Shown here piece by piece: positions 15,973 to 45,302 of a DNA stretch of 64,000 nt. The translations under genes were made by a program, and so were the position numbers. The stretch spans positions 11,656,001 through 11,720,000 of the forward strand of contig OX597823.1 in NCBI GenBank assembly GCA_951406725.2, written 5' to 3'. This DNA is from Octopus vulgaris (lineage: Eukaryota). The notes under the pieces were generated by a model that saw only the letters and a list, made by a program, of their open reading frames with translations, had not been told where the DNA came from and made no database searches. Within the stretch, counting starts at the first letter, position 1; each line of letters begins with the position of its first letter.

Positions 15973-18385
15973 GTAATGCAGTCTTTATCACCCACTCCAC
16001 TTCATTGCTAATTTTTGATGTCTTTTTTTAAAAAAAAAGAAAATTTATCGACATGCATGTTACAACACAAAGACAACGAAGATTTACAAATTCCCCAAAA
16101 ATATTCTTACCATATCATTATTTCACTAATGAAAGAATTAAGGATTCACTTGACAAAATGAATTATTTTCCCTGTCTGCAGATGAGTGCAGTCCAAACTC
16201 TCTCTCTTTCTCTCTAAGAAGAAACAGTATTTTATACACACATCAACTACAACATACTTATTTCAGTACACATTGAGTAAATACAGGAATATGTATTTCC
16301 CCACTTAGAAGATAAATTCAGGTCAGTATTCAGATTCTGAATATTACCACAAAATGGCCTTATAATGCATCATTCATTTAATTTCTGTAGAGTTTCAATT
16401 TTTAGCAATCAACACAGCTTAGCCTATATTTCCACAGAGTTAGCTTTGTACCAGAAACTTCCAAATCTCACCTGAGATGTAATAGGCCTCTACTTTCACT
16501 CCTCTAAAATACTTTACATAATGAAACTCTAAGAATATATTAGCTTCAGCTAACAACACTACAACAATACAAATTCCATCATCATGGCCTGTCTTCATTG
16601 GCATGTTTCATCTGACATGTTCCTTACATATTGTAGCATTGCATGTAATTTGGGCTAAATGTCTTTGGAAATTTTGGGCTGGAGAACCTATCTCCCTGAA
16701 CACGTTTGGTAATCTTTAGTAGTTGAGCTAAATGGGTGTGTTGTCTTGTGCCTGCTTGCACCAAACTTCTATACATGTATGTATATGTCTAGTGTAATTC
16801 TGGTTCTTGGGATGTGAATGTCATTGGATATCGTGTGGACGACAAGTCCAAATGTCCGAGTTGTTACTTGCGGACACTTAGATGCATTTGCTCGTTATTA
16901 TTACCTTTTTAAGAAAAAAAAAAAAAAAAAGGTTGCATTTGTTGCATTTTTCTTTTACTTTCTAATATAAATCGGGGATCAAAAAAGGTGGGGAGTTTTG
17001 CTGAAACAATTTTCAAATAAATTAACCTCCTAAGGGAAAAGGGGAAAAGAAAAGAAGTGCTAACAAAAAGTATGATCTTTTAATACATATACATTCATAT
17101 ATATATAATATATATATTATATATATATATATATATATATATATATTTGAATGTGTATATATATGAATGTGTATGTATACACTATTGCATGTGAAAATAA
17201 AACAAGGTTGCATTCTTTTCCTTTTCTTCTTTTCAATTAACCAAAAGCTTTGATCAAAAATTGTTTAAAGTTTTATTATTATCATTATTATTATTATTAT
17301 TTAAAATAAATCTCCAAATCAAAACGCCAGGTGTATTACTAAGCACAATTTGTTGATAAAAATCTTAGAATACAATTTTATTTTTAAAACATTAGTTTTT
17401 GAGATTTTCATAAGCCAATTTAGACATAATTTCATAATTGGTATCATCAGTATTACTTCTAAATTATTGTTAAGAGGCAAAAAAAAGTCTTCAGAAATTG
17501 TTTCAGCTTGACTACCAAGTGCAGTTCTACAAAGTAAATTGGTCAAGATTAGTCAGATAACTTTGGTCAACAGCTCCATTTAGTGCCATAAACAATGTGT
17601 CTCTGAAACCTGCATTACTATTATAACTACTACTACTTGTGTGTCCAACATTTGTATGTGCATATATATGTGTGTATACTTGTGTGTGTGTATGTGTTTC
17701 TTACTTTACAAAAAGGAAGATTTTTTTTTGTTGAAACTTTGTTAAAATTTAATTTAATTATTTTTTTCTTTTTTTACCTTGTTTTGCTTATATTTATTCA
17801 GATTCCAATACAATATGTATTTCAATACCAAATGGATTATTATAAATACACAATACTAATATCAGAGTATTGAATCTATCTTTCTTAACCACAGGGAACA
17901 AATTCGTGGAATTTAGTGCAATATTTCAGCTTTCATCATTGTGTTGTACCAGATTTTTCAATCCAATATTGTACAAAATATGGATTATATACATCAAATT
18001 TTACAATTTGCTGTACACCTTTCAACAGATTATATTATGATGTGTCTATGTGTGTGCCTGTGCATAAATGTAAGTGATTATATGTGTGTGTGTTTGTATG
18101 TGTATATGTAAAAAGTGCTGCATAGGGTTCAAGCATGTAGGATCAATTAAATTTTTATGTATGTATATAAGTGGATTAGAATATGAAAAAAAGCATAATT
18201 ACTAAACCCTTTATAATCATAATTGTGCAATGAATAATACCATATGTATTGTTTGAGGTAACACATTAATTATATTTGCTGTGTATGACTGGCATGGCTA
18301 GCTGCCTGATCATTATATTAGCTGATTCTTAGGGGATTTTCAAAGATATTTCAAAGTTGACAGTTGATATAAATTTTAACTTCTA

Positions 18386-18856
18386 CGAGGGGCATTCAAT
18401 AAGTAATGCCCCTGACCCACTTCCCATAGCAGTAGAGCAACGAAACTTGGCAGTTATTAGTCTTTTTCTACATAGGAACCACCCAGAGTTACGCATTTCT
18501 CCCATCGTTTGATGCAGCTCTGGAGACTGTTTTTGTAGAAGACCCCAGCTTGGTCCTCCAACCATGACGTGACTTCAGAAATCAAGGCTGCATCATCTGG
18601 GAAACGCTTTCCTTTCAAATACAATTTCATGGCTGGGAAGAGGTGAAAATCAGAGGGTGCAAAGTCAGGAGAGTAGGGGGTGGATGGGGGAGGAGTTCAT
18701 AGCTGCACACCTTTGCTTCTGATCTGGCGACACGCGAGTTGTGGACCGGAGCGTTGTCCTGCAGGAGGAGGATGCCTTTGCTGATCTTGCCTCGCCTCTT
18801 GATTTTGATAGCTTCTCTTAATTTCCTCAAAAGTGAAGCATAATAGTATCTATTTA
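18386..18856 (-). mobile_element. mariner transposon 3' fragment: transposase C-terminus plus one TIR
   Basis: Minus strand YYASLLRKLREAIKIKRRGKISKGILLLQDNAPVHNS...LPHPP, then after a frameshift YSPDFAPSDFHLFP..K..LKGKRF...RWEKCVTLGGSYVEK. Terminus TA|CGAGGGGCATTCAATAAGTAATGCCCC. Confidence 0.92.
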
Positions 18857-19695
18857 TGAGATGGAAGCCATTCTGTTTCCAAAAAGAACACAATCCCATT
18901 TCTGATTAGTCTTGCAATGGGGAATTTTGAAACTTAATGTCATGTTCTTTACTTCATCACATCGATTACTAGATGAAATCTAATAAAACTCTACTTGTAC
19001 ACAACTCAAGACCTGCTATTCCTTTAAAGCTTTTTAAGACTTCTGTCTTTAGTCCACAGCTAAACATTTGCTAATGTTAGCAATGCTTTGTATGCACATA
19101 TAGATTATCTTTACATTTTCTTTTTTTATTCTTTATTTGTCATACTACTTTTAGAAATATTTACCCATTAAGGATAGAAAGTCTCTCAATATGTTGCTTT
19201 TGACTAAATTAAACCTGTTGATGTTGCTTGAGGGTTGTCCATTTTAAGGTTAAGATGAATACCCTACTTCCTCCAAAGTAATTGCAAACGCAAAATATCT
19301 TTTATGCTGCTAAGAACAAACTTGGCTCTGGTTTCATAGCATTCAGTGGGTGAGTGATAATTTTTTTCCAAGACTTGACTTCAGCTTATTTCTGATCTGA
19401 TAAATATCCTTGACAACTGGCCTATGTCAGTTGAAGTGATGAAGAACAAAATGGTCTGCTTTGTAGCATCTATAAATAAAGAATAGTCCACAATTTTATC
19501 CATTCAGTCATGGTATGTCTTAGAATGTTTCTGATTAGTGTTTCAGTATTTAATCCGAGTTCTCCTGAGATTTTCCTTCATTACCTGATAATATCTAATA
19601 CTACATATATTGTTGGATCAGTCTATTTAAACTTCTATATGGGAGATGGAGGTCTGCTGTTTTTGGTTTTTGATATATATATATATATATATAAC

Positions 19696-43391: not shown

Positions 43392-43750
43392 ATCATCATC
43401 ATCATCAATTAGCATCCGTTTTCCATGCTAGCATGGGCTGGACGGTTCAACTGGGGTCTGTGAAGCCGGAAGGCTGCATCAGGCCCAGTCTGATCTGGCA
43501 GTGTTTCTACGGCTGGATGCCCTTCCTAACGCCAACCACTCCGTGAGTGTAGTGGGTGCTTTTTACGTGCCACCTGCACAGGCCCCAGCGGGGTCCGGCA
43601 TCGCCCACGATCGGTTGGAGCTTTTAACGTGCCACCGGCACGGGAGCCAGCCAAGGCGACGCTGGCAACGGCCACGTTTGGATGGTGCTTTTTATGTGCC
43701 ACCAGCACAGGTATCACAACTACTGTTTCCATTGATATTTATTTCGATGT
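43392..43750 (-). mobile_element. Repeat family D copy
   Basis: (CAT)n end plus the family D core and diverged internal tandem units. Confidence 0.8.
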
Positions 43751-45302
43751 TCATACAATATTATTATAATGTTAGTAATGATGTTGATGATAATATGAAG
43801 ATGGTCTAAATACTCTTACTCAACACTACAACTATTCAAATATATCTACTGTATTTACTGAGTACAGGACTAAAATCTAACTGAGATGAGTGGTTAAGTT
43901 GAAGACTTTGGGCAGGTTTTAGTGAAAAAAGCTTATTAAGTGTTCTTTTGCAAATTTCTACAGTAATAATAATATGAGGGGAAATCCTTTAGTGTATAAA
44001 AATATTTAATGCAAATATAGGGGCTCTAGTCTGAGGATAACTTTCCCTCTTTTTCCCACTAATGTTGAGGTTACTGCATGAATGTCTTGGAATCTGCCTT
44101 TCTATGGCAGAAAAAGACATAAGGGAAAATAATGAACAAATAGAAGTTGATGAGTAAATAGTTTGTTGATCTCTATGTGGATAAAGTCAGTTCTGCTGCT
44201 GAATTATCTTGGTATAAAAACTATTATGAGGCAGACTTTGTAATTAACAAGTGAAATTCATCACTGAATATAGGAAAACTCACCACATCTCTTTAGGGAA
44301 CAGTTGATATGCATAAATGATTAAAATTGATAAGTGATGTCTTAATAATTAAGAAGAGTACATTAAATGTAGTTTCTTATTATATCAAGCTTTTACTTTT
44401 TTTTTCCTATTATCAAAGATGTCAAAGTTTTTTTTTATTCTTTTATATCTTTGAATATATATCTTTGTATTTATAGAAATACTGAATCTGGATATTTACA
44501 AGATAATTATCTTTTGACACTTTAAAAAGATAAACTTTCTGCGTTTATTAAAACTGTTTAGTAAAATTATGACATAATTTCGAGATTGAAATAAAAATTG
44601 AAAATAATAAACTTTTTTTTAGAAGTCTAGATATTTAGATAGACAACTTCTAGTATATTTATTTACATCTAGCTGCAGTTTCCTTTTTCTTCTCTCTCAT
44701 TTCTTTTTCCCTCACTTTTATCCTCTTCTTTTTTTTTTTCAACTTTCTCTCTTACATATACACAAACCCTTAGATAACTTGGCTTAATGTCTTTTGTTTC
44801 CTTTTAATATTTGGAGCATCTATCTAGCTTAGCTGAATGAAATAATTATAGTAATCCATATAAGATTTATTATGATTTAAATAATGATAGTATGATTTTT
44901 TTAGTTCCATTTGTGCTGTGTATAAACCTGTGTATAGACAGGGAAATAGTTTGGAATTATCTGATTCTTTGGTGTTCATCTTTGCTGTAAATGTTGATGA
45001 CTTGTGTGTGGATTAGCCACACATTCAGTTGCTGAACATTTAATATGTGACTACACTAAACAAGTATTGTCGACATTTTCTCTTGGTTGATAATCTTGAT
45101 TATTTAGCTTCTCAGCTGGCACCAAAGTTTAGTGTACTCTCGTCAATAGAAAGATGCTGTGGACTTGTGTAATTTCCCAATAATTCATAGTTATGTCATA
45201 ATATTTGTCTTTTCAACAGCAAAATCATTTTCTTTAAAAAATTTCAATTATCTAATCATTATTTTTATTTTTTATTTTTTTATTTTACATTCTTTGTTAT
45301 AG

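Follow-up and report, generated by a model that had tools for sequence, protein, structure and literature searches.

We analysed a 64,000-nt stretch of the Octopus vulgaris genome (G000:C10:11656001-11720000; hereafter the window, in which positions are counted from 1), which carries part of a gene for a type IIa (LAR) receptor tyrosine phosphatase. The protein has three immunoglobulin (Ig) domains, fibronectin type III (FN) repeats, and tandem phosphatase domains and is closest to PTPRS/F/D; the best-matching solved chains of the full-length model P0024 are PTPRS, PTPRF, and PTPRD. Five exons on the + strand are, in tblastn searches, 100% identical to the corresponding parts of public Octopus LAR-type phosphatase models. 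These exons encode the first third of FN2 (8942..9042, 101 nt), the remainder of FN2 (15771..15972, 202 nt, ending in phase 1), FN3 (45303..45587, 285 nt, also found in contigs), FN4 (53690..53998, 309 nt, alternatively skipped in contigs and models), and FN5 (63703..64000, extending past the window end). The best PDB matches of the 15771-15972 and 45303-45587 exons are FN2 and the third FN repeat, respectively, of LAR, RPTPsigma, and RPTPdelta, which bears out the domain numbering in a preliminary description of this DNA. Between these two exons lies a phase-1 GT..AG intron of 29,330 nt (15973-45302), in which we conclude that two alternative microexons, of 30 nt and 6 nt, very probably exist. 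The sizes of this and the remaining complete introns of the window (6,728, 8,102, and 9,703 nt) agree with the preliminary description. However, the unusual length that it took as a clue does not serve as one: with both microexons included, the intron is split into pieces of 7,891, 4,753, and 16,650 nt, and the intron immediately upstream of FN2 is 52,320 nt long.

The 30-nt microexon (23864..23893, +), located by tblastn, adds the residues VPVNKPVIFD, has the donor GTAAGT, and is carried by 12 of the 16 Octopus models examined. A sequence scan placed its acceptor at the end of a 243-nt AG-free stretch (23621..23863, +) that is partly TA repeat and has TGC at -27. The 6-nt microexon (28647..28652, +; donor GTGAGG) adds ES when used alone and QS when it follows the 30-nt exon, and its insert occurs in 7 of the 16 models. 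Upstream (28539..28646, +) are a 106-nt AG-free stretch, a branch-point-like CTAAT at -40, a long pyrimidine tract, and a TGCAG acceptor. A second site, at 41479, could encode the same two residues with different exon letters but scores about -1 bits, compared to 18.4 bits for 28647. We also observed that the 30-nt exon contains a second AG six bases in (23870); it scores better as an acceptor than the first AG and would yield a 24-nt form, which was in none of the models examined.

Altogether, 21 cephalopod proteins span the FN2-FN3 joint, including the 16 Octopus models; of the 27 members of the main Octopus cluster, 15 were covered. The preliminary description had proposed five short AG...GT units as candidate exons, and of the 32 ways in which these units could be combined, exactly four occur in the 21 junctions: none (8), the 30-nt unit only (6), the 6-nt unit only (1), and both (6). 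In the 16 Octopus models, both exons are included in six, the 30-nt exon only in six, the 6-nt exon only in one, and neither in three. One Octopus assembly, whose exons are 100% identical to those in the window, has models with all four forms, and O. bimaculoides models show three (both, 30-nt only, and skipping; P0002, P0004, and P0022). The boundary residues (V or L, E or Q) shift as phase-1 splicing predicts, giving VIFD-L, VIFD-QS-V, and NPG-ES-V. The peptide NPG-VPVNKPVIFD-QS-VPQQP, predicted earlier from the DNA, occurs exactly in six public models, and the proposed combinatorial linker cassette is partly supported, in the form of two exons (30 and 6 nt) that public models use in four combinations. 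Judging from the gene models, each of the four forms is probably made in vivo. A search for short proteins carrying the insert gave 16 candidates, with 0 at E<=1e-5.

We compared the five proposed units to the chance background of the intron, counting frame-keeping AG..GT units no longer than 51 nt that are stop-free in phase 1 and scoring splice sites with generic frequencies. All five units lie where they had been placed, have lengths divisible by three, and contain no stop in phase 1, but their number is no higher than chance. The intron contains 850 such units (29 per kb), the other four intronic stretches 28.5-38.7 per kb, and shuffled versions of the intron a mean of 841-904; a length of 3n without a stop is therefore no argument for an exon. 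By contrast, the 6-nt unit ranks first of the 850 at 18.4 bits, ahead of a runner-up at 8.7 bits, and its score was reached by none of 120 shuffles. Among 1,382 AGs in the intron, the 243-nt AG-free stretch of the 30-nt unit is the second longest, although part of it is TA repeat, and stretches of at least 100 nt, such as the 106 nt of the 6-nt unit, precede 22. The long AG-free pyrimidine tracts that had been claimed for the two best units are found as AG-free stretches at both and as a long tract at the 6-nt unit, whereas the tract of the 30-nt unit is short and TG-rich.

The other three units fared differently. The 39-nt (24293..24331, +), 3-nt (38619..38621, +), and 18-nt (41435..41452, +) units rank 28-30, have AG-free stretches of 11-47 nt (11 nt for the 39-nt unit), and carry poor donors (GTAATC, GTATCT, and GTTTTG, respectively, the last scoring -3.9), and none occurs in any of the 21 cephalopod junctions. 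Their proposed status as exons is not upheld, and they are likely chance background. Three other model-supported microexons of the LAR gene (42, 30, and 15 nt) served as a yardstick; their donors (GTAAGT, GTAAAA, and GTGAGT) resemble those of the two microexons that we retain and differ from those of the three rejected units. A larger cassette comprising all five units, some of whose rare forms escaped annotation, would fit the listing of 15 of 27 cluster members, the ease with which 3-nt exons are missed, and the position of the 39- and 3-nt units inside single-copy GC-rich islands. Yet the 0/21 junction count, the poor donors and short AG-free zones, and the approximately 11-20 units of such score expected by chance compared to 26 observed make this larger cassette very unlikely. 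The two GC-rich islands (24150-24400 and 38540-38720) have the highest YGCY density of the window, contain CTG repeats, and can be read as hydrophobic signal-peptide-like frames, the second of which ends at a phase-1 GT (38622); they may act as regulatory elements or as internal first exons, or have no role. Truncated isoforms arising from the intron, another earlier suggestion, found no support, and none of 80 acceptors scored for alternative last exons was outstanding. Nor did RNA structure emerge as a regulator: folding z-scores of five stretches were -1.8 to +1.2, there was no convincing long-range pairing, the inverted repeats were TA runs, and no Rfam match was found. The intron also holds transposon remnants at 18457-18905 (-) and 35500-35889 (+), which we take to be a broken mariner-like transposase piece and the tail of a LINE (long interspersed nuclear element) reverse transcriptase, respectively.

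The surroundings of the two retained microexons suggest how they may be regulated. In flies and mammals, targets of eMIC-containing splicing factors are marked by a long AG exclusion zone, a CUAAY branch point, and UGC close to the acceptor (PMC8797185). Like such targets, both octopus microexons are very short and frame-preserving (30 and 6 nt, in phase 1 and without stops). The 6-nt exon has the 106-nt AG-free zone, TGC at -5, and CTAAY at -40 and -75, and the 30-nt exon has a long AG-free zone and TGC at -27. The genome contains a match above the Pfam cut-off to SRRM_C (PF15230, eMIC region; L005, G000:C25:37317492-37317626). By analogy with known targets and from this cis-architecture, inclusion would be neuron-biased and driven by an Srrm2/3/4 (eMIC)-type factor, most plausibly for the 6-nt exon. 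The TGC and TGCATG motifs pointed out earlier are indeed present near the units, at -5 and -27 and at +110, respectively, but they are common words. TGC has a frequency of 1.44 per 100 nt in the intron, so a TGC near a unit means little, and TGCATG has 11 copies there, so an occurrence within 300 nt of an exon is not rare.

The +110 copy of TGCATG (24003..24008, +), found by sequence scan, is nevertheless a candidate Rbfox-type element of the 30-nt exon, and it raises the alternative that the exons, chiefly the 30-nt one, are real but controlled by a non-neural programme of muscle or development through Rbfox- or Muscleblind-type factors. The densest YGCY bin of the window (12 per 200 nt compared to a mean of 1.7) lies approximately 300-400 nt downstream of the same exon, and Drosophila Lar is active in muscle too (PMC9140312). 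However, this bin is partly a CTG microsatellite, and the 6-nt exon is closer to the eMIC pattern. We consider non-neural control quite unlikely.

In public Octopus gene models, the 30-nt and 6-nt exons are used independently, so that FN2 and FN3 are separated by 0, 2, 10, or 12 added residues. Such inserts would likely lengthen the FN2-FN3 hinge and thereby alter the presentation of the ligand-binding Ig head. Vertebrate structures suggest that 2-12 added residues would provide extra reach and freedom, as meB does between Ig2 and Ig3, and the hydrophobic 10-residue insert may also add contact surface, as meA does. In the structure of RPTPsigma Ig1-FN3, the third FN repeat is folded back, and a flexion point without a substantial interface has been proposed at the FN2-3 linker (PMC4239663).

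Contigs assembled from unlabelled sequencing runs provided a view of transcripts, in which rarer forms are dropped and no letters before FN3 are readable beyond the terminal AG. The FN3 exon is present in 19 of 22 sequencing-run rows, for which the kinds of run were guessed. In runs X3, X13, X15, and X18, contigs span 45301-45587 and continue into FN4 or FN5 letters, which implies that these contigs are spliced. One contig per run enters FN3 in all four runs, and its preceding letters end in AG, as expected for the direct junction or for a 6-nt form but not for the form with the 30-nt exon only. Because assembly loses the rarer forms and the tissues are unlabelled, this evidence neither shows nor excludes inclusion. 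The same runs revealed alternative skipping of the FN4 exon (53690-53998): contigs of 368 and 59 nt fit both inclusion and skipping in X3, X15, and X18, X13 fits skipping only, and some models skip FN4 or FN4-5.

We also compared the same joint in other animals, using 259 proteins of at least 300 residues, 238 of which gave a junction; the 21 without a junction match were left out of the count. The homologue search drew on the best 120 of 1,017 matches, which favours insert-free forms. There was no insert in 206 junctions, and octopus inserts occurred in 13, a caenogastropod insert in 11, and an insert of the nemertean Lineus in 8. The caenogastropod insert has 3-4 residues (AGFQ in 5, AGYQ in 5, and GFQ in 1), with AGFQ/GFQ in Pomacea and AGYQ in Babylonia, and direct forms occur in both snails, which show that the FN2-FN3 joint tolerates and re-uses optional inserts. 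The 13-residue insert of Lineus is in all eight of its models. No insert was found in the vertebrate (PTPRF and PTPRS, with few or no PTPRD), insect, annelid, limpet, or bivalve sequences examined, in eight of eight further models of the echinoderm Antedon, or in 12 of 14 further models of the nematode Trichinella, the other two being unmatched. A 50%-identity search with P0039 returned mostly other Ig/FN proteins; among 19 LAR-like matches checked, 10 had the junction by pattern, with 0 inserts. The octopus, caenogastropod, and Lineus inserts have no evident sequence likeness, and from this separate origins at a tolerant joint appear more likely than one ancestral exon. The earlier suggestion of a code particular to the cephalopod lineage is too narrow, as caenogastropods and a nemertean have inserts of their own at the same joint.

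Taken together, our preferred interpretation is that two microexons are included independently, likely with a neuronal bias, and likely lengthen the FN2-FN3 hinge so as to alter presentation of the Ig head; we assign this whole chain a probability of about 0.68. Several observations weigh against it. The X3 contig, at 592 nt, equals exactly the direct junction (4 letters common to the ends of the Ig3 and FN1 exons plus 101, 202, and 285), and inclusion was seen in no contig of X3, X13, X15, or X18, with a single contig per run. Model P0027 has neither microexon, the main Octopus cluster was seen only in part (15 of 27 members), and the Argonauta model (1/1) and the cuttlefish- and squid-like transcript-derived proteins (4/4) have the direct junction only, so that the octopus exons may be confined to Octopus. 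The 30-nt unit has a weak splice score (rank 26 of 850) and no CTAAY, in an intron where TGC is common. Finally, the vertebrate FN2-3 linker is already flexible, so that added length may change little.

The lack of inclusion in contigs is what would be expected if the inserts were gene-prediction artefacts that are never spliced in. Against this, models from two species, drawn from three annotation sets, repeatedly show the four combinations, the score of the 6-nt site exceeds that of all shuffles, and two named inclusion models are NCBI 'isoform X' records, which are built on transcript alignments. An artefact is accordingly extremely unlikely. The direct junction in X3, the inserts' absence from the Argonauta and decapodiform proteins, and the lack of evident common sequence among octopus, caenogastropod, and nemertean inserts also fit a different account, in which both microexons are real but young, Octopus-only, and near neutral, and a tolerant linker gives birth to exons repeatedly without common function. 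This account is harder to reconcile with the identical peptide in O. bimaculoides and a second assembly, the 13 of 16 Octopus models that are inclusion forms, the unusually strong signals at the 6-nt site, and the retention of the gastropod insert between Pomacea and Babylonia (AGFQ and AGYQ), and we regard it as unlikely.

Additional variation was apparent elsewhere in the gene. The FN1 exon (L003, G000:C10:11601467-11601752), upstream of the window, is skipped in long molluscan LAR forms: Ig3 is joined to FN2 in 19 of 19 Ig3-bearing cephalopod models and 16 of 18 gastropod models, whereas annelid, nemertean, insect, and vertebrate long forms retain FN1. In molluscs, FN1 is found in short forms that lack Ig domains and begin with a hydrophobic segment of their own (Octopus P0019 and P0020, Pomacea P0049, and Babylonia P0046); in Octopus this segment is encoded immediately upstream of FN1. 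The length of the X3 contig fits long and short forms that merge at FN2. An optional 15-nt microexon between FN1 and FN2 (L001, G000:C10:11612607-11612621), preceded by a 143-nt AG-free stretch, encodes QRNKT in 8 of 21 models and adds an N-x-T glycosylation sequon. An optional 42-nt exon follows the signal peptide (L007, G000:C10:11475408-11475449), and an optional 30-nt exon lies between Ig1 and Ig2 (L006, G000:C10:11533181-11533210). Inserts similar to both are optional in snail and limpet models, and the first type is also found in an annelid-like protein; on this sequence comparison, these two exons look older than the FN2-FN3 pair.

Vertebrate LAR-type phosphatases are the textbook example of a microexon code for synapse wiring. 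Their meA consists of two microexons in Ig2 used singly or together, meB lies between Ig2 and Ig3, meC in FN5, and meD near D1 (PMC8711739). A deep mouse survey describes a further microexon, placed after the last FN repeat and before the membrane, together with eight uncharacterised Ptprd exons (PMC10883964); one of these eight could sit at FN2-FN3. Our literature searches returned no paper on cephalopod LAR microexons or on an FN2-FN3 mini-exon, and the main text of a comparative splicing preprint that includes octopus (10.64898/2026.09.05.749416) contains no whole-word LAR, PTPRD, PTPRF, or PTPRS, although its supplements and splicing databases may list the exons. We conclude that the two-microexon cassette is real, present in database isoforms, and apparently undescribed in print; it is a splice switch of a known kind at a new position.

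The octopus inserts match none of the positions of vertebrate meA-D. An insert at the meA site was found in 0 of 19 Ig-bearing cephalopod models, and none was found at the meB site in the cephalopod models examined. The likeness to meA3 and meA6 of PTPRD, PTPRS, and PTPRF lies in a common receptor family and in a pair of neighbouring microexons that can be included singly or in tandem (PMC8711739), a combinatorial use that the four forms in public models parallel; however, meA is within Ig2, whereas the octopus pair is between FN2 and FN3 and unrelated in sequence. With meB (ELRE/DQRE), the pair shares a short insert that lengthens a flexible interdomain hinge. Yet meB is a single insert of 4 residues between Ig2 and Ig3 with a shown effect on ligands, in contrast to two exons of up to 12 residues at FN2-FN3 whose ligand effect is hypothetical. 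Bilaterian eMIC (Srrm2/3/4) neural microexons are likewise short and frame-keeping with a long AG-free zone, and a branch-point-like CUAAY and a UGC, the latter a common word in this intron, also occur at the 6-nt exon. The flanking introns described in fly are short and those in octopus kilobases long, and eMIC-dependent neural inclusion is a prediction for octopus. The caenogastropod inserts (AGFQ/GFQ in Pomacea, AGYQ in Babylonia) occupy the same junction and are optional in both snails in database models, but neither they nor the Lineus insert evidently resemble the octopus inserts in sequence, and presence in 8 of 8 Lineus models does not indicate alternative use. A broader and doubtful proposal is that molluscs and their kin rebuilt a LAR splice code without meA and meB, with the FN2-FN3 hinge as a hotspot at which octopods, caenogastropods, and nemerteans each gained neural microexons independently, with a long molluscan form lacking FN1, and with a cell-type-specific ligand code that converged on the vertebrate one. 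The exact junctions named here can be quantified in existing octopus brain data, and together with the separate inserts of snails and a ribbon worm the octopus cassette would cleanly test whether a code like that of vertebrate LAR-type phosphatases evolved convergently in large invertebrate brains.

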